Origin: Candidatus Komeilibacteria bacterium S5_K13
GTDB lineage: Bacteria > Patescibacteriota > Patescibacteriia > UBA1558 > S5-K13
Reading direction: 5' to 3'
Assembly: GCA_019248485.1 (NCBI GenBank)
Contig: JAEHGL010000001.1
Location: 11,446 to 75,445, forward strand
Length of the DNA: 64,000 nt
Numbering within the stretch: the stretch's first letter is position 1; the number at the start of each line of letters is the position of its first letter. The notes below the pieces were generated by a model, which did no database searches, was not told the origin of the DNA, and worked only from the letters and a program-made list of their open reading frames with translations. Position numbers and translations under genes: made by a program. Shown here one piece after another: positions 9,040 to 61,292 of the stretch.

Positions 9040-9125
9040 CCTCCTTCATTTGGACATTTCTCGCCTCGCTGAAGCTACCTGCCTCGACTTGTGTCTATGG
9101 CAAGGCGGGTGGCGAAGCGGGGAAA
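9040..9125 (+). repeat. GC-rich repeat element, copy 1 (~60-85 nt). Core sequence is ...TCGCCTCGCTGAAGCTACCTGCCTCGACTTGTGTCTATGGCAAGGCGGGTGGCGAAGCGGGG.
   Basis: The same sequence recurs at 38335-38415 and 61175-61292 in the same orientation. A diverged partial copy lies inside the CDS at 40003-40044. It is GC-rich in an AT-rich genome and contains internal inverted repeats. Confidence 0.8.
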
Positions 9126-9143
9126 TTTGTCATTTGATATTAA

Positions 9144-9744: not shown

Positions 9745-10821
9745 TTATTTTTTTATTTCTCTAAGTCCCGTAAATATATTACTTCCACTATCTTTATCAA
9801 TTAGAATACTGTATATTAGATTTTGACTTGGAAACTTAACACTTATCCATTCTTTTCCCCCATCTATACTTCTATAAAAAGCATTCAATGTAGAATAATA
9901 AATTTCTTGTGAATTATTTGGATTAATTGCTAATCCATAAATATCGACTGCGTTTGATTTTGATAAAAGCTTTAAAGCGCGCCAAGAATTACCACCATTA
10001 TCAGAAATAAACAATCCGTATTGACTTGCATATATAATTGAATCTTCCTTTGACGAATCAAGTGTCATAGCCCTAAAAGATTTTACACCCCTTGGCATAA
10101 CTTCGACATCTTTTTCAACTTCTTTTATTGATTCTGTTATGTCTCTCCAATTTCCTCCATTATCATCTGATTTATATATGCCATTACTCTTTAATCCAAT
10201 ATATATCTTCTTAGAATCTTTTGGATTTATCAAAACTTGATTTACAGAAGAATCAAAACTCTTTAATACGCTCCATTGATATCCCCCATCACTACTTCTA
10301 AGTAATCTTCCGTCACTTATTCCGATGTAAACCATCTGCGTATTAAATGGATCTATGTCTATTGTTTTCAAACTTTTTCCAGACTCAGTGTATGTGTCCT
10401 TCCATTTCCTTGCACAATCAGTGCTTTTGTACAAAACATTACTAACAAGTGCGTAAATAGTGCAAGAATCTTTTGGATCTATTGCAACATCATTTATAAC
10501 ACCCTTTGAAATTAATGTTCTTTGCCATGAGTCCCCCTTGTCTAAAGAATAAAACAATCCGTGCTCTAGCGTTCCTGCATAAATAGTTTTTGAATCGTTC
10601 GGATCTAATTTTAAAAATGTAATCTGAGAACTGTTAAAAAAGGCTCTTGTCTCACCTATATTCAAAAGCTCTGTTTTAGATACCCATTTTGAACCTTTGT
10701 CATAACTTACAAATATTCCTAGTGGCTGACTCTTTTTCATAGATAGATTAAGACTACAAGCTGAAAGCGTGATTCCCAAAGATAGAATCAAAAATACATT
10801 TATAATTTTCCTATAATTCAT
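9745..10821 (-). CDS. Lipoprotein with BNR/Asp-box (SxDxGxxW) repeats. Sortilin/Ycf48-like beta-propeller.
   Basis: Lipobox LSAC. There are seven or more S-x-D-x-G-x-x-W repeats (SYDKGSKW, SLDKGDSW, SSDGGYQW, SDDNGGNW, SDNGGNSW, SIDGGKEW). Confidence 0.6.
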   Translation of the reverse strand: MNYRKIINVFLILSLGITLSACSLNLSMKKSQPLGIFVSYDKGSKWVSKTELLNIGETRAFFNSSQITFLKLDPNDSKTIYAGTLEHGLFYSLDKGDSWQRTLISKGVINDVAIDPKDSCTIYALVSNVLYKSTDCARKWKDTYTESGKSLKTIDIDPFNTQMVYIGISDGRLLRSSDGGYQWSVLKSFDSSVNQVLINPKDSKKIYIGLKSNGIYKSDDNGGNWRDITESIKEVEKDVEVMPRGVKSFRAMTLDSSKEDSIIYASQYGLFISDNGGNSWRALKLLSKSNAVDIYGLAINPNNSQEIYYSTLNAFYRSIDGGKEWISVKFPSQNLIYSILIDKDSGSNIFTGLREIKK

Positions 10822-10850
10822 ATTTTTTTGCCCCGCCCTGGGCGGGATGT

Positions 10851-11861
10851 TTATATTATTAAAATATTTTCCAAAATAATCCTAGGATTTACATTTTGAA
10901 AAATCATTTTTTTAGCACTTAAAATATTTTTATAAAAATTAATAAGCTCTTCATAACTAAACTTTCTTGAAACTTTTGAAATAGACCCCTTTAGAAACTC
11001 GTGTATTAATTCAATTTCTGGATCTAGTTTAAAAACAATTAAATCCCTTGCAATTTTTAGATAATTATCTAACAAATTTTCAAAATATACATATTGATTG
11101 TCTTTGCTGCCGTTTTTTTTGATAATACTTTCAACCCAAAAAAATTTTTCATTAAGCGAGTTATCCATTATTTCAAGCATTTGGGAAAGATTAGTTTTTT
11201 GAATATTCCAACCTTCTTGATCTTTAAAATAATGAAGCGCTATCCCTGGGGATCCTCCTGCAAATTTGGATAGTTCTTTGGAAATATCGCCACCCGCACC
11301 AAGAGATTTCAAATTTTCATAAATTTCATCATCCGATACATTATTGAAAATAATATTTTGACTGCGCGATCTAATAGTTGGCAAAATATTTTCTATTTTC
11401 TCAGCTATTAAAATTATCATAGAGCTCTTACTTGGTTCTTCAATTGTTTTTAGTAGCGCATTGGCAGATTCTTTATTTAATGAGTCGGCATTGTTGATGA
11501 GTCCGATTTTGTATTTTGATCTCATTGGTGTTCTAGACATTCTATTTTGAAAATCTCTTACTTGTTCTATTGAAATATTTTTCTTTCCCTCTTCTCTATC
11601 GACATATATATAATCTGGATGAGAAAGCTTTGATATTTCAATACAATCATTACAATGATTACATGGAATAGAATTTCTGTCCGAACAAAAAATAGATTTC
11701 ACAAAAAGATCGGCCATTGTCTTCTTGCCAATATCACGAGGTCCGGTAAATAAATATGTATGTAAAAAGTCTTGTTTTTCTATGAGCCTTTCCAGATATT
11801 TGACTATGTTTTGATGTCCTAAAATAGGCCAATTCATATTTTGACTAATATCATTTTCCAT
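10851..11861 (-). CDS. holB: DNA polymerase III delta-prime subunit-like AAA+ protein (HolB; a short DnaX is the alternative).
   Basis: GPRDIGKKT P-loop-like segment, a Cys4 zinc module (CNHCNDC) and an SRS/sensor region. Confidence 0.55.
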   Translation of the reverse strand: MENDISQNMNWPILGHQNIVKYLERLIEKQDFLHTYLFTGPRDIGKKTMADLFVKSIFCSDRNSIPCNHCNDCIEISKLSHPDYIYVDREEGKKNISIEQVRDFQNRMSRTPMRSKYKIGLINNADSLNKESANALLKTIEEPSKSSMIILIAEKIENILPTIRSRSQNIIFNNVSDDEIYENLKSLGAGGDISKELSKFAGGSPGIALHYFKDQEGWNIQKTNLSQMLEIMDNSLNEKFFWVESIIKKNGSKDNQYVYFENLLDNYLKIARDLIVFKLDPEIELIHEFLKGSISKVSRKFSYEELINFYKNILSAKKMIFQNVNPRIILENILII

Positions 11862-11899
11862 ATTTTTAAGAATAGCAAATTTTCGACTAAATTACTACC

Positions 11900-13380
11900 C
11901 TGACATCACCTCAGAGGTGCATCACCTCAGAGGTGTTTAGCTGTGGATAACTACTATTGACAATAACTCTATGACATGCTATGTTACTTTATTGTACATT
12001 AACAATTCACTTCAAATTAACAGCAAGAAAAATGTAGAAGACTCTTTAAGAGGAGCTAATCTTTGGCGCCTTGAAAATAAACAAATTGCCATTTTAGCCA
12101 CTCTTCTACAGCTTTCTTGCTGTTAAAAAGGCTCCCTCTGTCAGAGATATTAGTTGACTAAGGAGCCATGATAAAGATGCCGCTTCCCTTAATTCTTTAT
12201 CCGAAATCAACAGAATTCAATTATTAAATAGGTGTTGATTGGTAGATAGAGGATGTTTCCCAACAATGGAGGTAACATGAGTATTCGGGGACAGCCCTAG
12301 ATTCCAAAATAAAAACAATCCCCCGAGACTTGGGGGAAATTCCGAATAGAAAAATTTTTTTGACAAAAGACATCCCTTGCTCCATTCTCCCCTAAAAGCA
12401 CATTACTACACATTAGAGGGATTTTACGGAAGCATGGGTAATATCTTTTGTCACCCGTCTTGTGGTCTTCGCGTCTGTTCAATGCTCTCGAGTTTTTAGC
12501 AAAGATCATTAGACACCCCTGGTGCCCCCATACGCACAGTAAGCGCACTCCCAACAATTGTTGGGAGTGAAAAAAGCGCTACGATATGTGCTGCTGGTTC
12601 TTTGAACCTGCCCTATAGCACTCAGAAATAGCGATGGGGGCTCACCAGAAAAACACCAAAGGCAACCTAGCAATTTTCCGGCTAATCCATGGTAACTCCG
12701 TTTTTTTTAGCGGTAATATCCATAGACAAAACCGGCCTAGGATGCCCGAGTGTGCGGACCAAAAGACTGTTAAGGGTTTACCTAAGGGCGCCCTTTCGCA
12801 CCTAGCTTGGTGCGAGCACAGTTTTGGCCACACGCGGCGACCCATGTCCCTGGCGCCTTCGCTCAATTGCTCATCGGGCTAAAACCTCCGATAAGAGCTA
12901 GAGAATCGTATTGCGAAGGCGCCTAATTCAATCAGTTCACATTGGTCCTTTATTGGATCAAACGGACCAAGGCCTAAAAAGCCCCGGCCTGTGCCAGCAG
13001 AAAGCTGACCAAGGCTCTCAAGTCCGAACCCAATGTGAACTCAAACCCCATTCTCTTTGGGGCTTGAATCGATAAGCGTAAAACAAATTACGCAAGTTGT
13101 TTACAAGCCCCCTTGAGATTTCAAGAAACAACCCCCGCAGTCTAATTGACTAGAGGGGTTAATGAAAGAAACATAAGTTTCTGAGAACCTCACGCCGAGG
13201 AATAATGCCTCTAGATAGAGTGTTCTCAGGGAAGACCGTCCAGAAGTCCTTCTGGACTCTAAACGACAACAAGCTTGACTGTAACCGAAAGGTACAGCCC
13301 GCCACGTCGTTAGACTCCTTAGGACTTCTGGAAAATTTTAACTAAGACCCGTAATACACTGTGGTCTTTTTTATTTGTCA
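11900..13380. ncRNA. Large GC-rich (~50% GC), hairpin-dense noncoding locus. Candidate structured RNA(s) of unknown family; strand unresolved.
   Basis: No credible ORF (the three track ORFs overlap each other on both strands). There are many perfect hairpins, for example CACTCCCAACAATTGTTGGGAGTG, GGCGCCTTCGC...GCGAAGGCGCC, and a long-range pair GTTCACATTGG/CCAATGTGAAC. A + strand promoter-like site sits at about 11957-11985 and a terminator at 13345-13377. Confidence 0.4.
13345..13377 (+). terminator. Hairpin AGACC-N13-GGTCT followed by a T-run.
   Basis: Stem-loop plus TTTTTTATTT at the 3' edge of the GC-rich locus. Confidence 0.45.
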
Positions 13381-13424
13381 GAAACCGACCCTGAGGGTCG
13401 ACCTAAAAATCTGCTCTTGACGAT

Positions 13425-13480: not shown

Positions 13481-14452
13481 ATGAAAAAAATGATATTTAT
13501 CATCATGTCAGTCTGCCTATTCGCAGGTTTAGTGGCACAAACAACACCCACCACCTCACCCACATTTTATGGGAAACTAATGATGGGAACATGGTACAAT
13601 ACTGGAAATAGTACTTTTTCTGAGCAGATGTATTCCAACTCTCGTCTTGGTATCAGATGGAATAATGGACATTCTTATGACTTCATAGGGGAGATGGGAA
13701 TGAGTCCCAACGGTATTGTGTTAAGAAAACTGACATGCGTCATGAATATCTGGAATGGTTGCGATCTCAAAATTGGGAATGATTGGTTTAGTGGACTTGA
13801 TCAATGCACTAATGGAGCAACTGGCCCCACTTATACATCTGATAGCCCTACAGAATCTGGTCCTGCAGTAATTGCCAGAACACCACAGATAACATTGATA
13901 CACAATGATTTGTATCTTAGTTTTCTACCGGGTATAACGGTTAATCCAACCGGAACAGAGACAACAAAAAGCATTCCCAGACTGGCTGTCTCAAAAAAGG
14001 TTAAAATCTTAGACGTAAATTTTACTCCTGCATTATCCTATGGACATTACTGGGATAAACAAAATTCTTATAATGCCTGGGTGGTCTGTATCACAGCTAA
14101 AAGTAAAATTTTTGATTACGACATTACTACACAAGGATTTATAGCCAATAATTTTGGCGATTTGGGTGGATTAAGTATTGCTCAATCTAACGCAACTGCT
14201 ATTAATCAAAATATTCAATCAGGTGGTGCTTTTGCACAAATTAGATATCAAAACTTTTATGTAGGTGCTGGATATACCAAAAATAAAACAATGGAAACAG
14301 ACGCCGGTACCACGTTTTTCCAATATAACAAAACCATGTGGAAAAATGGAAACATTACATTAACACTAACTCCTGAAATGGGATTGTTCTTTGGAGATAA
14401 TGTCTCCAAAAACACTTTATATTTCGGAAGTAAGTGGACAGCCCAATTCTAA
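13481..14452 (+). CDS. Secreted protein resembling an outer-membrane beta-barrel/porin (C-terminal Phe, alternating hydrophobic strands). GC content is higher than its neighbours.
   Basis: Signal peptide MKKMIFIIMSVCLFAGLVAQ. C-terminus ...YFGSKWTAQF. Strong SD. ~40% GC. Confidence 0.5.
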   Translation: MKKMIFIIMSVCLFAGLVAQTTPTTSPTFYGKLMMGTWYNTGNSTFSEQMYSNSRLGIRWNNGHSYDFIGEMGMSPNGIVLRKLTCVMNIWNGCDLKIGNDWFSGLDQCTNGATGPTYTSDSPTESGPAVIARTPQITLIHNDLYLSFLPGITVNPTGTETTKSIPRLAVSKKVKILDVNFTPALSYGHYWDKQNSYNAWVVCITAKSKIFDYDITTQGFIANNFGDLGGLSIAQSNATAINQNIQSGGAFAQIRYQNFYVGAGYTKNKTMETDAGTTFFQYNKTMWKNGNITLTLTPEMGLFFGDNVSKNTLYFGSKWTAQF

Positions 14453-17080: not shown

Positions 17081-17186
17081 GTTGGGTGGTTAGAAGGTTT
17101 CAGCCAGAGGCTGATCCGCCTTTGGCGGAAGATGGTTAGAGGGTTAGGTGGTTAGTAATCTATTCTAACCCTACTAACCTCACTAA
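17081..17186. repeat. GGTTAG/CTAACC hairpin element. The left arm is rich in GGTTAG, the right arm in CTAACC(C/T)TACTAACC.
   Basis: GGTTAGAGGGTTAGGTGGTTAG...TTCTAACCCTACTAACCTCACTAATC. Related copies lie at 30311-30378 and 30797-30866. Confidence 0.7.
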
Positions 17187-17195
17187 TCTACTGAC

Positions 17196-22317: not shown

Positions 22318-23134
22318 AGACGCCCTACTTACGGGATTTCAATTCTTGAAAGAGCATAATATTGATTCATATTTCTTGGATACTGAATTAATTCTTTGTT
22401 TTACTATAAAAAAGAAAAAGGAATGGGTCTTGTCAAACTCTGACTTTGAGCTGTCTGTAAATCAAGTTAAAAGATTTAAAAAACTAATTCTAAAAAGATC
22501 CAAAAATTACCCAATAGCCTACATTACAGGATATAAATATTTTTTTGGACTTAAGCTTAAAGTAAATAAGCACGTTCTTATTCCAAGACCTGAAACTGAA
22601 TTATTAGTAGAATCGACCCTCAAGGTCGCCGACCCTCAGGGTCAAATTTTAGACATTGGAACAGGATCTGGAGCTATTGCGGTATCTTTGGCTAAAAATT
22701 TAGAAAACGCCAAAATAATAGCAAGTGATAACTCCTCTTTTGCTCTAAGTATGGCAAGGAAAAATGCAAGGACTTATAAGTTAAATAAAAAAATAAAGTT
22801 TGTAAAAAGCGATTTACTAGAAAAATTCAAAAACCTTAAAATTAACATTATTATCGCAAACTTACCTTATGTAAAAAATGATTGGGATCATGCATCTATC
22901 AAACATGAACCTCATAGCGCACTATATTCTGGGAAATCTGGACTTGTTCATTATTTTAAGCTATTAAAACAAATAAAAAAATACAATATAAATCCTAAAT
23001 ATCTAATTATAGAAATTAGCCCTGAGCAAGTTGAAATTATTTCAAAAAAAACGAAAGAATTGTTTGTAAATGCAAATATTGAAATAAAAAAAGATCTTGC
23101 AGGCTTAGATAGGGTCATAATAATAAAGTTTTAA
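22307..23134 (+). CDS. prmC: Release-factor glutamine N5-methyltransferase PrmC/HemK.
   Basis: [14 protein letters not shown] motif and NLPY catalytic motif. Overlaps the prfA stop. Confidence 0.8.
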
Positions 23135-25715: not shown

Positions 25716-25779
25716 ACGTTTAGTTGTTAGTATTTAGATTTTAGTATTTAGCTAATTACTGAAAACTGAAAGCTGACAG

Positions 25780-28773: not shown

Positions 28774-28802
28774 GGGGCCTGACCCCAAAAGGGTCAGGCC
28801 CC
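28774..28802 (-). terminator. Perfect 12-bp GC hairpin (GGGGCCTGACCC/GGGTCAGGCCCC), followed on the minus strand by a U-run. This is the orphaned rplA terminator.
   Basis: Hairpin plus TTTGTTTTTGG on the minus strand. Lies just downstream of the duplicated rplA 3'-end copy. Confidence 0.55.
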
Positions 28803-30310: not shown

Positions 30311-30378
30311 TTAGTGGATTAGTTGATTAGATAATTAGAAATATATATCCCTAACCCTACTAACCTTACTAATCTAAA
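30311..30378. repeat. GGTTAG/CTAACC hairpin element, copy B.
   Basis: TTAGTGGATTAGTTGATTAG...CCCTAACCCTACTAACCTTACTAATC. Confidence 0.7.
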
Positions 30379-30788: not shown

Positions 30789-30796
30789 AAATTTTG

Positions 30797-30866
30797 TTGG
30801 TTAGGTGGTTAGTTGATTAGATGGTTAGCGACTTATTCTAACCTTACTAACCCTACTAATCCACTA
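30797..30866. repeat. GGTTAG/CTAACC hairpin element, copy C.
   Basis: GGTTAGGTGGTTAGTTGATTAGATGGTTAG...TTCTAACCTTACTAACCCTACTAATCC. Confidence 0.7.
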
Positions 30867-31295: not shown

Positions 31296-31431
31296 ATAAT
31301 TATTAGAATTTAGTATTTAGAATTTAGTTTTTAGAGGAACTAATAAACCACACAATTATCAATATTTAAATTCATAATACTTACCTAAGAAGCCTACACC
31401 ACCAAAGCGGGAGTAGATAAGTAAAAAATTA

Positions 31432-37843: not shown

Positions 37844-38323
37844 TTAAAAATTCAATTTCCAGATAAAGAAATTCAATACAGATGCAAAACTTACCCATAA
37901 TATATATGGGATTAAAATAAGTGACGCAATTCTTGAAATTTTATAAAACCCAATAATGGTTGCAAATATAGAAATCCACAAAATCATTATTTCAAAGAAT
38001 GCAAACATTGGAGATTCTAATCCAAAAAATAGTATTGACCAAAGAATATTTAAAATAAGCTGTATAGCAAATATTATTATTACTTCTTTTTTATAAGCCC
38101 TATCTTTGAATTTACTTGTCCAAATAATATAAAGAGAGATTCCCATTAAAATAAATAGAATTGTCCATACCGGCCCAAAAAGATAATTTGGTGGATTAAA
38201 AGATGGCTTTGTAACGCCTTGATACCATGTAGCTATTTTAGGAGTTGTAAAAAAAGACCCCAAAAATCCAGCAAACTGACAAATTAAGATAGAGATAATT
38301 AGCTTTAGTGTTTTAGATTTCAT
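37844..38323 (-). CDS. tspO: TspO/MBR family tryptophan-rich sensory protein.
   Basis: WYQGVTKPSFNPPNYLFGPVWTILFILMG signature. Confidence 0.75.
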   Translation of the reverse strand: MKSKTLKLIISILICQFAGFLGSFFTTPKIATWYQGVTKPSFNPPNYLFGPVWTILFILMGISLYIIWTSKFKDRAYKKEVIIIFAIQLILNILWSILFFGLESPMFAFFEIMILWISIFATIIGFYKISRIASLILIPYILWVSFASVLNFFIWKLNF

Positions 38324-38334
38324 ATTTTCTTTGT

Positions 38335-38415
38335 CCGGTTGCTCGCCTCGCTATCGCTACCTGCCTCGACTTGCGTCTATGGCAAGGCGGGTGGCGAAGC
38401 GGGACTAACCGGATA
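38335..38415 (+). repeat. GC-rich repeat element, copy 2.
   Basis: CCGGTTGCTCGCCTCGCTATCGCTACCTGCCTCGACTTGCGTCTATGGCAAGGCGGGTGGCGAAGCGGG. Confidence 0.8.
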
Positions 38416-38419
38416 TTAA

Positions 38420-39739
38420 TTACTTAACAAAAATTAATCCCAAGAAACTGACCCCTACTATTATTAGAGCTGATACAAAAAATCTAAGTGCAAATTTACG
38501 ACTTCCCTGAGCATAAGAAAAAATACTCTTGCTAAATAAATTTGTAGCGTTCACAAGCAAAAATACAAAAGTTGCAAATTGAAACGTAATGTCACGACCC
38601 GCCATTTCGGCAAGAGAAACAAGTATTGCGTCTAATCCTGTAAAAGAAGCTATTATAGAACTTATTACAAAACCAGCCTTACCAAACAATACCAAGCAAA
38701 TCTTTGTTACTATTTTTACAATTATTAAAATTCCTGCAAACTTGAGCGCTGGCATAAGTGCAAATATTTTACCCTCTGTCTCTTCGACTTCCTTTTGCTT
38801 TTTCTCTTTTTCTTTTTTACGCAAAAATATAGTAGCTATAATAGCGGCGGAAATTATCATTATTGAAATACTTGGCAAAATAGATACAAGCCAAGCTGCA
38901 TTAAGTGGACCGACTAATAAAAAGATTTGAAAAAAACTAGCTAGGTTTGATAAAATAGCAGCACCAAGCAAATAATTAACAGTCGATGACTTTTTACTTC
39001 TTTGAGCTAAAGACTGAGTTGTTGATGTTGAAGAAACAAAACCCCCTACAAAACTTGTAAGACTAAAACTACTTTTATTACCAATAAGTCTTCCAAGTAG
39101 ATATCCAAAAAGATCTATTCCTGTAATCAAAACTACAACCATCCATATTTTTCTTGGATTGATTAATTCAATTACAGCAAATTTTCCAAGATCAACATTT
39201 AGACTTGCAAATATTTGAGCTAAAAACGGAATGTCCATTAGCTTGTATCCTACGTTTGGCAGAAAAGGCAAAACAATTAAAGCTATAATTGCATAACTTA
39301 TAAAAGACTGTAATTCTTTTTTTGAAACACTCTGGGTAATTTTTTGAGTTGTTGCTTTTACAGACAAAATCAAAATTACTACCACAAACAAAGCTATGAT
39401 TAAATAAAGCGGTAAAATATTAAGTGTTATAAGTAGACCCATTAAAAATGTAAATAAAATAGCCAACTCACTTGTCAGCCCCAAGTCTTTTGTAATAATA
39501 GAGCTTATTAAATAAGAAGAAATGAGTAAAACAAAAAAAGCGCTTGATATAAGAAGTGCAAACATCGGCAATTGACTAGAATAAAGTATTCCAGCAACAG
39601 ATCCAAGAAGACCTATCATTGAATATGTTCTTAGCCCACCAGCAGACCCCAAATCCTGATTACTATTTTCACGCTCTAATCCTATAGCAGCACCTAATAA
39701 AAGTGAAAGTAGTAACTTCCCCACCAAAGTCTCAAACAT
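38420..39739 (-). CDS. MgtC/SapB-family membrane protein with a DUF4010-like C-terminal extension.
   Basis: LLLSLLLGAAIGLERE...AGGLRTYSMIGLLGS is the MgtC N-terminal signature. About ten TM helices. Confidence 0.65.
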   Translation of the reverse strand: MFETLVGKLLLSLLLGAAIGLERENSNQDLGSAGGLRTYSMIGLLGSVAGILYSSQLPMFALLISSAFFVLLISSYLISSIITKDLGLTSELAILFTFLMGLLITLNILPLYLIIALFVVVILILSVKATTQKITQSVSKKELQSFISYAIIALIVLPFLPNVGYKLMDIPFLAQIFASLNVDLGKFAVIELINPRKIWMVVVLITGIDLFGYLLGRLIGNKSSFSLTSFVGGFVSSTSTTQSLAQRSKKSSTVNYLLGAAILSNLASFFQIFLLVGPLNAAWLVSILPSISIMIISAAIIATIFLRKKEKEKKQKEVEETEGKIFALMPALKFAGILIIVKIVTKICLVLFGKAGFVISSIIASFTGLDAILVSLAEMAGRDITFQFATFVFLLVNATNLFSKSIFSYAQGSRKFALRFFVSALIIVGVSFLGLIFVK

Positions 39740-39841: not shown

Positions 39842-40642
39842 CTATCTTAACTCGTACAAAATAATTCCTGCACTTATTGCAACATTAAGAGATTCTATTT
39901 TATCAATGCTTAGAGAGATCATTCCATCTGATTTATCTAATATGGCCTGACCTATACCATTTGCTTCATTTCCAAAAACAATACAATATTTTTTGCTCGC
40001 CTTGGCGTAGCTGGAGCTCCGCTTCGGCGAAGCCATGTCTTTTAGTTTTTCTGGTAGTACCCCACCCGTCATAACGGTAGAATAAATTTTCATTTCTTTT
40101 TTTATTTTTTGAAATATTTCTAGGTCCTTGTCAAAAGAAATATTTAGCTTAAAAATAGAATCTTTACTGGCATTTATTACTTTTGGATTATAAATATCTA
40201 CACAGGTATCATCTACAACGATGTTATAAAACCCAAACGCAAGAGAGGTCCTAAGTATTGTTCCCATATTTCCAGGATCATTTATTCCATTTAGATAAAT
40301 AATATTACTTTTAAAATCAATATCTCTATTTATCTTATCATATATAGCATAAATTCCTGAAGAGGTTGTGAGACAAGAAATATAGTCATTTACCCCTTGA
40401 TTTATAATATGAAAATTTTCTACTTTTGATAAAATAAAATTAGCATCTTCACCATTTTTGTCTAATAAATCCCCTCTTATAAATAATTCCTTTGGCAAAA
40501 TACCAAACTCAATCGCGTCATGAATAGTCGTCAAACTCTCAACAAAAAAGAGATCATCTTCACTCCTCGTCTTTTTATCTTGAAGTTTCTTTAGATATTT
40601 TATTTTTTCATTATTTGTGCTTCTAATAATTTCTTGTTCCAT
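39842..40642 (-). CDS. SpoU/TrmH-class RNA 2'-O-methyltransferase, carrying an in-frame GC-rich insert (..MASPKRSSSYAKASKK..).
   Basis: IVFGNEANGI and LNVAISAGIILYE SPOUT motifs. Nucleotides 40003-40044 match the GC-rich repeat family in reverse orientation. Confidence 0.7.
   Translation of the reverse strand: MEQEIIRSTNNEKIKYLKKLQDKKTRSEDDLFFVESLTTIHDAIEFGILPKELFIRGDLLDKNGEDANFILSKVENFHIINQGVNDYISCLTTSSGIYAIYDKINRDIDFKSNIIYLNGINDPGNMGTILRTSLAFGFYNIVVDDTCVDIYNPKVINASKDSIFKLNISFDKDLEIFQKIKKEMKIYSTVMTGGVLPEKLKDMASPKRSSSYAKASKKYCIVFGNEANGIGQAILDKSDGMISLSIDKIESLNVAISAGIILYELR
40003..40044 (-). repeat. Diverged partial copy of the GC-rich repeat, embedded in frame within the SpoU methyltransferase CDS.
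   Basis: The reverse complement GGCTTCGCCGAAGCGGAGCTCCAGCTACGCCAAGGCGAGCAAA aligns with the right part of copy 3 (GGCGAAGCGGGCCTACGGCTACGCCGAGGC...). Confidence 0.5.
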
Positions 40643-46889: not shown

Positions 46890-48686
46890 ATGGAAATAAG
46901 AAATATAGCCATTATTGCTCATGTTGACCATGGCAAAACTACCATTACAGACGCTCTAATGAAGCAAACTGGTATGTCTACTGGTGAGACAAGTATGGAC
47001 AGCAATGACTTAGAGAAAGAAAGGGGTATTACAATATACTCAAAAAATACTTCGATTTACTACAAAGACACAAAAATAAATATTGTTGACACTCCTGGTC
47101 ATGCTGACTTTGGCTCTGAAGTAGAGAGAGTTCTTCGCTCCATAGACTCTGTTGTTCTTGTTGTCGATGCACAAGAGGGGCCAATGCCTCAGACAAAATT
47201 CGTATTAAAAAAATCACTAGACTTAGGACTAAAACCCATTGTTGTAATAAACAAAATTGACAAACCAGCAGCAAGTCCGAGCGATGTTAAAGAAATGGTA
47301 TATGAATTATTTCTAGATCTTGGCGCTGATGATGATCAGCTAGATTTTACTGCGATTTATGCTATAGCGCGCGACGGTGTTGCAAAAAAACATTTACACG
47401 AAGAAGCGCGAGATTTTTCTCCACTTTTAGATATCATCTTAGAAAAAGTTCCTGTCGCTTCCAGTCCTGAGCTTACAAACAAAGAGCTTCTTGTTCAACC
47501 ATTTAATCTAGGCTATGATAATTTCCTAGGACGCTTAGCAATATGTCGTATATATGAAGGAACAATAAATCAAGCCCAAACACTAGTTATCAAAAACTCA
47601 GAAGGAATTGCAAGGCGTGGAAAAATTACAAAATTATTTACCTTTGAAGGACTTATAAAAAAAGAAATTGAAAATGCTTCGGCGGGAGATATTGTAATGA
47701 TCGCAGGGCTTCCTGATATCTACATAGGCGAGACAATTTGTGAAAATGAAAATCAAAAATCGCTTCCAGCGATAAGTATTGATGAGCCTACAATTTGTCT
47801 AAACTTTTTAATAAACAATTCTCCGTTTGCAGGACGTGAAGGAAAATTTGTTACAAACAGACAACTCAAAGAAAGACTTGAAAAAGAATTAGAAATAAAC
47901 GTCGGGCTAAAAATTGATTTCTCATCCACTGAATCTTACAAAGTATTTGGCCGTGGTGAAATGCACATTGCGATTCTTTTAGAAAATTTAAGAAGGGAGG
48001 GCTACGAGCTTCAAGTTTCTCAACCCCATGTAATCATCAAAGAGATTGATGGTGAAAAACACGAACCATACGAAGAAGTTATTATTAATGTACCTCAAGA
48101 AATGAGCGGGGTTATTATCCAAAAGCTTTCAAAACGTCGTGGAACAATGATAGAAATGGAGCCAGAGCATGGAAATCTTAGAATGGTTTTTGAAGTTCCT
48201 ACTCGTGGACTTCTGGGCTACAAAAATGAGTTTGTTGTTGATACAAGGGGTGAGGGAATACTATATTCACGCGTAACGGGTTTTAAGCCATATGCTGGAA
48301 AAATAGACAAGACAGAGCTAGGATCAATGATTTCAATGGCAACTGGAAAAGCGCTTGGATTTTCACTTTATAATATACAGGAGCGTGGGACTCTTTATAT
48401 CAAGGCAAATACAGAAGTTTATGAAGGAATGGTTGTTGGAAATGTTGCAAAGGGAAATGATATGGTTGTAAATGTTATAAAAGGAAAACAGCTTACAAAT
48501 ATGAGATCTTCAAACGCTGATGAAGCAATAAAACTTACTACTCCTCTTGAGATAACTCTAGAGCGTGGAATGAGCATAATGAATGATGATGAATATCTTG
48601 AAATTACACCTCACAATATTAGGCTTAGAAAACAATATCTTACTGAAATTGAACGTACTAGATTTGGAAGAAAAAAAGAAAAATAA
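46890..48686 (+). CDS. typA: Translational GTPase TypA/BipA.
   Basis: IRNIAIIAHVDHGKTT G1, DTPGHADF G3 and NKIDK G4 motifs, plus the BipA C-terminal domain. Confidence 0.9.
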   Translation: MEIRNIAIIAHVDHGKTTITDALMKQTGMSTGETSMDSNDLEKERGITIYSKNTSIYYKDTKINIVDTPGHADFGSEVERVLRSIDSVVLVVDAQEGPMPQTKFVLKKSLDLGLKPIVVINKIDKPAASPSDVKEMVYELFLDLGADDDQLDFTAIYAIARDGVAKKHLHEEARDFSPLLDIILEKVPVASSPELTNKELLVQPFNLGYDNFLGRLAICRIYEGTINQAQTLVIKNSEGIARRGKITKLFTFEGLIKKEIENASAGDIVMIAGLPDIYIGETICENENQKSLPAISIDEPTICLNFLINNSPFAGREGKFVTNRQLKERLEKELEINVGLKIDFSSTESYKVFGRGEMHIAILLENLRREGYELQVSQPHVIIKEIDGEKHEPYEEVIINVPQEMSGVIIQKLSKRRGTMIEMEPEHGNLRMVFEVPTRGLLGYKNEFVVDTRGEGILYSRVTGFKPYAGKIDKTELGSMISMATGKALGFSLYNIQERGTLYIKANTEVYEGMVVGNVAKGNDMVVNVIKGKQLTNMRSSNADEAIKLTTPLEITLERGMSIMNDDEYLEITPHNIRLRKQYLTEIERTRFGRKKEK

Positions 48687-49269
48687 ATATAGAGTTAAAT
48701 CAACAAGACTAAGTTACTGGGATTATTCTAATCCTGGTTTTTATTTTGTCACAATATGTACTAAAGATAGAAAAAATATGTTTGGTGAAGTTAAAGATGA
48801 AAAGATGATTTTAAATAGATTAGGATATATTGTAAAACATTGTTGGCGTGATTTAACAAATCATTATAAAAATTGTAATTTAGATTCGTTCATTGTAATG
48901 CCGAATCATTTACATGGAATTATTAAAATAAAAAATTTCAATTCTAATGAACCCGTAGAGATGGGTTTACAACCTAGTGTAGCGATTCGCATCGCACCCG
49001 TAGAGATGATTCATGAATCATCTCTACGCGAATCGCCAAACAATAATTACAAAATAGAAAGGCGTAAAATGTTGTTATCAAAAATTGTCGGTAGATTTAA
49101 AATGCAATCATCTAAAAAAATAAATCTAGTAAATCGTGCAATACATTTTCATTGGCAACTAGGATTTTATGATCACATAATACGTATAGAATTTGATTTA
49201 TGGAAATCTAGAAAATACATAATAGATAATCCAGCAAATTGGAAAAAAGATAATAATTATAGAAAATAA
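48583..49269 (+). mobile_element. REP-associated tyrosine transposase (RAYT, IS200-like Y1 HuH). The N-terminal 27 codons overlap typA and are probably not translated; the likely start is the TTG at 48664.
   Basis: YWDYSNPGFYFVTICTKDRKNMFGEV..., HuH motif MPNHLHGII, and C-terminal WQLGFYDHIIRIEFDLWKSRKYIIDNP. An internal GC-rich palindrome TAGAGATGATTCATGAATCATCTCTA lies between the HuH and Tyr regions. Confidence 0.7.
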
Positions 49270-58946: not shown

Positions 58947-58995
58947 CGTTTTTTAAAACAAAAAGACGTCTTGATATAAAACGTCTCTTATGCTC
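58947..58995. repeat. 49-bp direct repeat A (Bro-N gene 3' end plus terminator hairpin AGACGT...ACGTCT). Its mate lies at 61120-61168, with one mismatch.
   Basis: AAAACAAAAAGACGTCTTGATATAAAACGTCTCTTATGCTCTAATATGT. Confidence 0.8.
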
Positions 58996-59866
58996 TAATA
59001 TGTGATTCATTACTATTTTGAAAAACCTTTTTTAACTTTTTTTGCTTTGATAATCTTTTAAAATTGTTTTTACTCACTATCGGCTTACCAGTTTTTTGTT
59101 CCAATTCTAAACGAGCATTTTTCGCAACATGTCCACCTTTTTTTGCGGGAATTTTATTATCTTCTACTCCTTTTGTTTCCATTGTTTCTGCAATTTGGCG
59201 TGTAGAAAGTTCTGCTAAAGCTGTAAAAACTAGCTCGGCATCTGTCATGTGATCTCGTAAATTTTCTTGACGCAAATCTTTTAAGCTCTTGTGTTCTTTT
59301 ATTGTAAGATCACTCCATTCTTTATGAATAATATTTGTCAAAATAGCATACTCCTCTTTTTTTCTTACTTCATTATCCTTCCAATAATCAGTCAATTTAT
59401 TGCGAATTTCTTGTCCCATCATTCTCTGTTGTATCCATTTTTTATCTCGTCCCATTTTCTGCCAATATTCACAACTTCTATCTAAAGCTCTTTCTGGATC
59501 ATTCATTTCTTGCACTCTTTCATAACCAACTTTTGCTAACCATAATTTAATAGGTTCAGCCTTTTTGCTTGGAATAGATTGAATAAGGCGCAAAATTGTT
59601 TCTACGTCAGCAACATCTGTTTTATAAAATTTACCATCTGCGGACAAAAGTTTCAGTTTGTCACATTTTGTGACAGACTCATTTCCCTCTCTTTTTAAAC
59701 GATTTTTAAGAGTTGCCCAATAACTTTGTGCTTTTTTGAAATCTATTTGCTCAATTAAAATAGCAACGATATCAATTACTGAAAAATACCATGTCTCAGT
59801 CTTTTCATCATAATATCGACGAATTTTGTGAGTTTTAAAAATAGCAATGTTTTTATTTTTTTTCAT
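58988..59866 (-). CDS. Bro-N domain protein with a DinD-like (DNA-damage-inducible protein D) C-terminal region.
   Basis: The N-terminal IAIFKTHKIRRYYDEKTETWYFSVIDIVAIL resembles Bro-N. The C-terminal FTALAELSTRQIAE...KKGGHVAKNARLELEQKTGKPIVS is DinD-like. Confidence 0.55.
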   Translation of the reverse strand: MKKNKNIAIFKTHKIRRYYDEKTETWYFSVIDIVAILIEQIDFKKAQSYWATLKNRLKREGNESVTKCDKLKLLSADGKFYKTDVADVETILRLIQSIPSKKAEPIKLWLAKVGYERVQEMNDPERALDRSCEYWQKMGRDKKWIQQRMMGQEIRNKLTDYWKDNEVRKKEEYAILTNIIHKEWSDLTIKEHKSLKDLRQENLRDHMTDAELVFTALAELSTRQIAETMETKGVEDNKIPAKKGGHVAKNARLELEQKTGKPIVSKNNFKRLSKQKKLKKVFQNSNESHIRA

Positions 59867-61119: not shown

Positions 61120-61168
61120 AAAACAAAAAGACGTCTTGAAATAAAACGTCTCTTATGCTCTAATATGT
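61120..61168. repeat. 49-bp direct repeat B (orphan copy of the Bro-N gene end and terminator).
   Basis: AAAACAAAAAGACGTCTTGAAATAAAACGTCTCTTATGCTCTAATATGT. Confidence 0.8.
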
Positions 61169-61174
61169 TATTTT

Positions 61175-61292
61175 CGACGCAACCCCGTCTTCGCTCGCCT
61201 CGCATTCGCTACCTGCCTCGACTTGTGTCTATGGCAAGGCGGGTGGCGAAGCGGGCCTACGGCTACGCCGAGGCAGGTCGGTTGCTCGAAAC
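61175..61292 (+). repeat. GC-rich repeat element, copy 3 (the longest). It has an additional right arm containing CGAGGCAGGT, which is complementary to ACCTGCCTCG.
   Basis: ...CGCCTCGCATTCGCTACCTGCCTCGACTTGTGTCTATGGCAAGGCGGGTGGCGAAGCGGGCCTACGGCTACGCCGAGGCAGGTCGGTTGCTCG. Confidence 0.8.

Follow-up and report, generated by a model that had tools for sequence, protein, structure and literature searches.

A family of self-nesting, REP-like GC-rich hairpins with filled and empty alleles in AT-rich Patescibacteria genomes

Three GC-rich intergenic repeats in an AT-rich Patescibacteria genome proved to be members of a family of short hairpins that lie nested within one another and that are filled, empty or further nested at orthologous sites of sister species. 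We interpret these repeats as a non-autonomous, self-nesting, REP-like miniature mobile element made of GC-rich imperfect hairpins of roughly 30 nt, a reading to which we assign a probability of about 0.65. The comparisons given below support a young, low-copy, self-nesting family and its REP-like, mobile interpretation, with the reservation that the copy number is low in the sequence read and that movement is deduced from the comparison of alleles. Coordinates without a locus name refer to the window, i.e. the whole stretch of 64,000 nt of DNA that was analysed.

An exact-pattern scan of the window located the 48-nt core GCTACCTGCCTCGACTTG(Y)GTCTATGGCAAGGCGGGTGGCGAAGCGGG at 9074-9121, 38356-38403 and 61208-61255, always on the + strand, accompanied by a left block CTCGCCTCGC at positions 9060, 38342 and 61194. 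Core and left block together make up a common 62-nt unit (copy 1, 9060-9121; copy 2, 38342-38403; copy 3, 61194-61255), within which only the Y position and a 4-nt internal stretch (TGAA, TATC or ATTC) vary. None of 100 dinucleotide-preserving shuffles contained a match to the core, and the three-copy family with its core and left block stands as originally described. The GC content of the 62-nt element is 62-66% (about 64%) against ~30% for the window, in which GC skew is negative throughout. All three copies lie between ORFs, again as first reported. They also share the + orientation, but the additional claim that they do so regardless of the strand of the flanking genes was overstated: with only one flanking gene of six on the + strand and five on the - strand, the copies are hardly a test of orientation relative to gene strand, and an oppositely oriented nested family member is present in a relative (species C, locus L007, below). 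The genes bordering the copies are functionally unrelated to one another, no homology on which recombination could act is shared among the flanks of the three copies, and each copy is enclosed by an inverted repeat of its own, which differs among copies.

The 62-nt unit is itself a composite, in which a 30-nt hairpin, module A (CTCGCTTCGCCATAGCTTTAGCGAGGCGAG), carries in its loop a second hairpin of 32 nt, module B (CCCGCCTTGCCATAGACACAAGTCGAGGCAGG), an arrangement written here as A[B]. Copy 1, in the frr-rseP spacer, consists of the 5' part of module A (9060-9077), the nested module B (9078-9109) and the 3' part of module A (9110-9121), and is surrounded by a weak host hairpin (GACATTT ... 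GAAATTTGTC; 9053-9131, + strand) that also occurs in the empty site of a sister species. Copy 2 (module B at 38360-38391) occupies the spacer between an mgtC-like gene (MgtC/DUF4010) and tspO. It forms part of an extended unit 'D' (38322-38427, + strand), in which an outer stem (CCGGTTG / CTAACCGG) is joined by AT-rich flanks of about 15-20 nt on both sides, and which adjoins both the tspO start codon and the stop codon of the mgtC-like gene. Copy 3 (module B at 61212-61243) is found in a spacer of 724 nt, bordered by a 109-aa ORF on one side and the gene of a PALP enzyme on the other, where it cuts in two an inverted third module, C (61183-61277, - strand), leaving the pieces CCCCGTCTTCG at 61183-61193 and CCTACGGCTACGCCGAGGCAGG at 61256-61277. 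The whole copy 3 complex is closed by an outermost predicted stem (61173-61290, + strand), in which TTCGACGCAA (61173-61182) pairs with TCGGTTGCTCGAA (61278-61290). The additional arm that the original prediction pointed out in copy 3 is indeed complementary to the core (CGAGGCAGGT at 61269-61278 against ACCTGCCTCG at 61211-61220), and it is part of module C.

Modules A, B and C are 30-33 nt in length, have a GC content of 60-66%, are intergenic throughout and align as diverged homologues of one unit of roughly 30 nt. In the gene-sense orientation the consensus of this unit is CCCGCYTYGCCATAG...CGAGGCRRG, and its ends are CTCGCC... and ...GCGGG. Copy 3 interrupts module C at a position homologous to that where a module A has entered B in species C (L007). 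Neither the outer hairpin D nor module C turned up elsewhere in an 'empty' form, and a covariance model of the unit yielded no extra members in the 225 kb searched. The sites counted amount to four in the 105 kb of the source genome, two in 70 kb of species B and two in 31 kb of species C, i.e. about one per 15-35 kb of sequence read.

The neighbourhood of copy 3 also contains a repeat of 53 nt (58955-59007 and 61120-61172; 96% identity), made up of the last seven codons of a Bro-N gene, its stop codon and an intrinsic terminator, the second copy of which adjoins the outer stem of copy 3. We considered and rejected the idea that copy 3 lies within a decayed paralogue of the Bro-N gene, since only this terminator-plus-stop segment is held in common.

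Orthologous spacers were compared among three genomes. The source genome of our counts is the MAG GCA_019248045.1, in which the window lies on contig JAEHHI010000005.1 and which also contains loci L011 and L012. Species B is represented by GCA_964640635.1 (L001, L004, L014 and L031) and species C by Logan run SRR8925722 (frr-rseP spacer, L003; mgtC-tspO spacer, L007). The RseP proteins of species B and C are 85% and 89% identical to that of the window, respectively, and the MgtC-like protein of species C is 88% identical; homologues of the window RseP are named Patescibacteria. Assembly GCA_964640635.1 is titled 'uncultured Gammaproteobacteria', yet has 30% GC and is gene-for-gene syntenic with the Patescibacteria window; its taxonomic label looks wrong.

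The frr-rseP spacer, nearly identical otherwise, exists in three states across these genomes: an empty site in species B (GACAAATTTC^TAATGTC; L004/L005), module A alone (30 nt) in species C (L003) and the composite A[B] in the window. At the mgtC-tspO spacer, species C (L007) carries copy 2 with an additional module A of 30 nt that sits inversely oriented within B, which can only be the insertion of a discrete 30-nt unit. A third orthologous site, by ruvC and ~0.8 kb upstream of a RAYT-like gene, shows the reversed polymorphism: the source genome has a solo A variant (L011/L012), and L014 of species B an A[B] of 90% identity. Presence and absence of the element at orthologous sites are visible in these alignments. 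Species B also contains, at L001, a copy identical to copy 2 including the outer stem and about 15-20 nt of flank, but at a non-orthologous locus whose neighbouring genes are wholly different from those of copy 2. The outer stem of the L001 copy carries a compensatory change (CCGG/CCGG to CCAG/CTGG), and both this copy and copy 2 end 0-2 nt from a start codon. We counted the occurrence of the same core in three unrelated spacers, together with the identical non-orthologous copy at L001, in favour of a mobile element. Of the identities first proposed for the repeats, a REP-type mobile hairpin is the one that suits a dispersed, hairpin-forming and mobile-looking family with filled and empty orthologous sites. 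The element is present in independent assemblies, both NCBI MAGs and several Logan runs. One Logan contig of 2891 nt (SRR10961541, L009) stops within copy 2, which suggests that the element breaks short-read assemblies.

At the junctions compared (frr-rseP, and mgtC-tspO in L007) there was no target-site duplication, footprint or flanking direct repeat, which argues against both classical cut-and-paste transposition and replication slippage. A classical MITE was rejected as a candidate as well: the arms are inverted repeats but a direct target-site duplication accompanies none of the junctions. Every insertion occupies the centre of a local palindrome, and folding of the empty sites, as reconstructed, places the junction in the loop of a hairpin (-2.9, -11.9, -4.3 and about -14 kcal/mol). 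For comparison, among 7,687 intergenic positions of the window, -3 kcal/mol is reached by 11% and -8 kcal/mol by 1.6%; the empty site of copy 1 folds at -3.0 kcal/mol, with the junction in the loop. The strongly paired host hairpins at two sites (S2 and S4) come without an observed empty site, so that their stems could belong to a larger element instead of being targets. Across six sites, the CTCGCC end may favour a position directly 3' of TTG: the triplet that precedes this end is TTG in three cases, the remaining ones having TTA, TCG and CTA.

According to the preferred, mobile-element reading, units and composites would insert in the single-stranded loops of existing hairpins, those of their own family included, and repeated nesting would build two-, three- and four-layer stem-loops, of which copy 3 and the L007 copy would be examples; insertion and loss would both be seamless. 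The likeliest chemistry would be a single-strand 'peel-and-paste' transposition for which a Y1/HUH enzyme is supplied in trans. Three traits of the element, namely its dependence on hairpins, its gain and loss without a scar and the T-rich target on its 5' side, match the outcome of single-strand transposition by Y1/HUH enzymes, and mobilization of this kind via single-stranded DNA is a plausible proposal. We infer the enzyme, an intermediate of single-stranded DNA and any consequence for the host, for instance mRNA stabilization.

A gene for a RAYT-like, IS200-like Y1 (HUH) protein is located at 48664-49269 (+ strand) in the window. It was detected with NCBIfam and Pfam HMMs, scoring 57.2 bits (E=1.7e-15) against REP_Tyr_transpos, for which the curated cut-off is 80, and 21.2 bits against Y1_Tnp, for which it is 23. 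An HLH and a YDH motif are visible in the protein. A regular expression for the HUH-plus-Y motif missed this ORF and the HMMs detected it; phmmer, queried with the protein, failed to retrieve the solved Escherichia coli RAYT from the sequences of the PDB. The original prediction referred to a single RAYT transposase in the window. A RAYT-like gene is present there, but the genome GCA_019248045.1 has at least three, at least two of them beyond the window on other contigs (86% and 80% identical to that of the window), they mostly stand without flanking repeats and their scores fall below the cut-offs. No hairpin element occurs within 10 kb of 48664-49269, the nearest copies lying at a distance of about 10 kb. 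We inspected five RAYT-like loci from three genomes, of which a single one is accompanied by a family member at less than 1 kb, namely L011 together with its syntenic orthologue L014, where a single copy lies 0.8 kb upstream of the RAYT-like gene with an ORF in between; no family member was found near the RAYT-like loci L013, L031 and L032. Synteny with species B suggests vertical descent of one RAYT-like paralogue. The product of 48664-49269 is a candidate for the trans-acting mobilizing enzyme, and the link between the element and the RAYT-like genes is weak. An internal GC-rich palindrome was also observed within the RAYT-like ORF (GCGATTCGC...CGTAGAGATGATTCATGAATCATCTCTACG...CGAATCGC; 48975-49035). 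It recurs at L013 (10320-10348) and L032 (10278-10383), encodes an atypical peptide (VAIRIAPVEMIHESSLRESP) and looks like an intragenic hairpin conserved among paralogues.

Predicted folds of the copies are very stable (-38 to -60 kcal/mol, z-scores -4 to -5). Either strand gives good folds, whether treated as RNA or as DNA, the + strand slightly better ones owing to G-U/G-T wobbles. The whole window gave no match to Rfam 15 at the gathering threshold, and at permissive E-values the region around copy 3 matched unrelated microRNA and sRNA models at best (E about 1). Covariation was not significant, the observed value being reached by 103 of 500 shuffles, although this count is uninformative because the copies are too similar; the one compensatory pair within the element is a change from C-G to U-A in species C (L007). 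No U-tract follows the hairpins of copies 1-3 on either strand. We rejected an intrinsic terminator on this account, a terminator scan having found only the AT-rich terminators with T-runs beside copy 3. A tRNA or rRNA fragment was likewise considered and rejected, as was an integron attC site, the R''/R' core sites (RYYYAAC ... GTTRRRY) being missing or misordered; no integrase was present among the 49 ORFs scanned.

Several other explanations compete with the mobile-element reading. One is a functional RNA family kept by selection, in which spread would be secondary and the repeats would act either as antisense sRNAs from the + strand or as cis hairpins that stabilize, terminate or regulate - strand mRNAs. 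The stability of the folds, the bias of the G-U wobbles towards the + strand, the proximity of copy 2 and the L001 copy to start codons and the two compensatory changes (one in the element in L007, one in the outer stem of L001) all speak for it, and these pairs would also fit selection on RNA or DNA structure. We nevertheless judge it improbable, as there is neither an Rfam family nor covariation above that of shuffles, the hairpins have no U-tract though ordinary terminators occur nearby, and the flanking genes have no function in common; moreover, close relatives lack the element, or have a truncated form of it, at the corresponding operon junction (frr-rseP), so that it is dispensable there. 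The small RNA gene family entertained in the original prediction accordingly gained no support from Rfam or covariation. Its proposal of a REPIN-like architecture also gave way. A canonical REPIN-RAYT system, with REP doublets spread by a single-copy domesticated RAYT encoded in the window, would account for the RAYT-like ORF, for GC-rich extragenic palindromes of REP size, for the inverted partner arm in copy 3 and for the RAYT-like paralogue with a family member upstream that is kept in a sister species. However, copies 1 and 2 are single nested hairpins, and the inverted arm of copy 3 stems from a module C interrupted by nested insertion, not from a head-to-head doublet. The ends carry no terminal GTAG or CGTC, the tetranucleotide for which they were inspected: GTAG occurs solely at the border between module B and the loop of module A (GGCAGG/TAGC) and is derived from the host, and CGTC solely in the loop of the C variant. 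With the absence of elements around the RAYT-like gene of the window and three further loci, and with multi-copy genes of sub-cut-off score, we find such a system quite improbable.

Spread could also have proceeded by means other than a transposase, through gene conversion, template switching between hairpins or, following horizontal transfer, homologous recombination, the short forms arising by replication slippage across hairpins. Palindromes are hot spots for template switching, every insertion here lies within another palindrome, long and short forms alternate in both directions at two loci, and A-like 30-mers occur in unrelated GC-rich viral contigs (below). Against this, the junctions have none of the direct repeats or microhomology that slippage needs, the flanks of copies 1-3 offer nothing for recombination to act on, and the inverted nested module A in L007 demands a discrete 30-nt insertion; the explanation is highly improbable. 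An artefact of assembly or contamination, in which GC-rich foreign reads were joined into an AT-rich MAG, might be suspected from a GC content of ~64%, extreme for a genome of 30% GC, and from the Logan contig that stops inside the element. The same junctions, however, recur in GCA_019248045.1, GCA_019248515.1, GCA_964640635.1, SRR8925722 and SRR10961541, which derive from different projects or runs, with intact syntenic genes on both sides, and these independent assemblies effectively refute an artefact. Beyond the mobile-element reading in its general form, a bolder version is possible but doubtful: that the repeats represent an undescribed type of bacterial mobile DNA, in which hairpins of ~30 nt would target loops over sequence, nest recursively and move seamlessly via single-stranded DNA with the multi-copy RAYT-like Y1 enzymes of Patescibacteria acting in trans, perhaps having come from a GC-rich organism or its phages.

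The family looks restricted to a narrow lineage, as it was absent or nearly so from the databases searched. Two exact patterns gave no match in JGI metagenomes, the B hairpin gave none in IMG/VR, and BLASTN matches among PLSDB plasmids and INPHARED phages stayed at chance level (E of 0.7 or higher); the GTDB representative genomes returned a single match, L001. A 78-nt repeat was observed in IMG/VR contigs of 67-69% GC (L017; L018 at 1132-1209 and 10535-10612; L020; L023; and L028), themselves unmatched in INPHARED. It contains a 30-mer that agrees with module A at 27-28 of 30 positions, 20 of which were fixed by the search pattern, the rest corresponding by estimate to roughly p = 0.006. Judged by this resemblance, a common or horizontal origin of module A and the viral 30-mer is possible. 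The same viral repeat also holds CCGCCAAAGGC, which resembles a second GC-rich family of the window.

This second family is a 29-nt double mini-hairpin (TCAGCCRGAGGCTGATCCGCCTTTGGCGG), found in the window at 17100-17128 and also in L004 (9958-9986), L011 (11137-11165) and L012 (2065-2093). Its place in species B is the middle of an AT-rich palindrome within the frr-rseP spacer, with nothing there in the window or in species C, and it too is mobile-looking. More isolated GC-rich intergenic hairpins lie at 10823-10854, 13387-13399, 22612-22644 and 28774-28802, and the isolated hairpins include GACCCTSAGGGTC (three copies), CCCGCCCTGGGCGGG and GGGGCCTGACCCC-AAAA-GGGTCAGGCCCC. Within the ORF of a SpoU methylase (39842-40642), a 46-nt GC-rich patch of mini-palindromes (39994-40039) has ends, GCTCGCCT...GGCGAAGC, that resemble module A. 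The patch, which species C has conserved, encodes DMASPKRSSSYAKAS within a protein loop and may be an old in-frame hairpin insertion.

Further features of the window were noted in passing. A roughly 1.5-kb ORF-poor stretch (11880-13400) with 40-53% GC in a genome of 30% GC and with many local stems has 83-84% nucleotide identity to its counterpart in the sister species (L004, 5551-7211), where it lies between holB and rnhA. It had no Rfam match even at E<=1, and may be a large unannotated structured RNA. A 323-aa ORF (13481-14452) matched neither Pfam nor NCBIfam, and the roughly 1.1 kb that it occupies has no counterpart in the syntenic region of species B. An 8-nt periodic motif, TTAGnnnn (on the opposite strand, CTAA), recurs in runs within many spacers, often just upstream of genes for ribosomal proteins or others (1559-1635, 17165-17190, 25720-25751, 30311-30376, 30793-30863 and 31303-31334).

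Patescibacteria have tiny, streamlined genomes that are usually described as poor in mobile DNA, and the alleles compared here indicate that their spacers are remodelled on the time-scale of species divergence. A clean series of filled, empty and nested alleles at orthologous sites is rare material on the movement of REP-like hairpins. Should the RAYT-like paralogues prove to mobilize the element, RAYT groups that are not associated with REPINs would gain a substrate, and HUH biochemistry a minimal one of 30 nt. Such repeats break short-read assemblies of genomes from the candidate phyla radiation, and they could serve as strain markers. Full-text literature searches returned no report of REP- or MITE-like elements in Patescibacteria.

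Among small palindromic repeats of bacteria, Rickettsia palindromic elements are 100-150 nt in length and typically lie in-frame within genes, while the small dispersed repeats of cyanobacteria measure 21-27 nt, do not form GC-islands and can nest in each other. Like the present family, both are small palindromic mobile repeats of compact bacterial genomes that can lie inside other structured sequences, but their sequences are unrelated to the element; to our knowledge, neither has been reported from Patescibacteria.

REP and REPIN elements, which reportedly go with RAYT transposases in Proteobacteria, number tens to hundreds per genome, and the canonical RAYT is single-copy and vertically inherited. 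The likeness of the present element to them lies in short (about 30 nt), dispersed, GC-rich, imperfect extragenic palindromes with G-T wobbles in their stems and sub-families differing in the loop, and in a family of Y1/HUH RAYT-like genes in the same genome. A conserved tetranucleotide, GTAG or CGTC, left unpaired at one terminus of the stem, defines REPs (Di Nocera et al., 2013; PMC3733652), and RAYTs are 'almost always' flanked by REPINs (Bertels et al., 2017; PMC5581495). By contrast, the element described here is without such a tag, its units are nested in each other's loops in place of head-to-head doublets, its density in the sequence read is low at about one per 15-35 kb, its RAYT-like companions are multi-copy, below the curated cut-off and mostly unflanked by repeats, and its host has an AT-rich Patescibacteria genome.

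In the models provided by IS608 and ISDra2, insertion takes place directly 3' of TTAC and TTGAT, and the targets are single-stranded. The IS200/IS605 family and the non-autonomous PATEs share with our element a seamless, hairpin-dependent insertion and excision without target duplication and, for IS200/IS605, perhaps insertion 3' of a short T-rich motif, here TTG (for single-strand transposition in this family, see PMC6006769). They differ in that the element is one symmetric hairpin without distinct subterminal hairpins at a left and a right end, that its units, at 30 nt, are far smaller, and that its target is apparently structure, i.e. a hairpin loop, at least as much as sequence; an autonomous parent IS with matching ends was not present in the 225 kb searched.

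The GC clusters of mitochondrial genomes (GC42 of yeast, PMC4478555; RHEs of sponges, PMC2800124) resemble the element in being GC-rich hairpins of 17-84 nt in the spacers of AT-rich genomes, in their presence or absence between close relatives, in merged composites of several hairpins and in changes concentrated in loops. Yeast GC42 leaves an AG target duplication and footprints (PMC4478555), both of which are missing here, and these clusters belong to another domain of life and have no sequence similarity to the family. By analogy of behaviour, then, REP elements, miniature elements derived from IS200/IS605 and mitochondrial GC clusters appear to be the closest relatives in kind of the self-nesting hairpins of these Patescibacteria.
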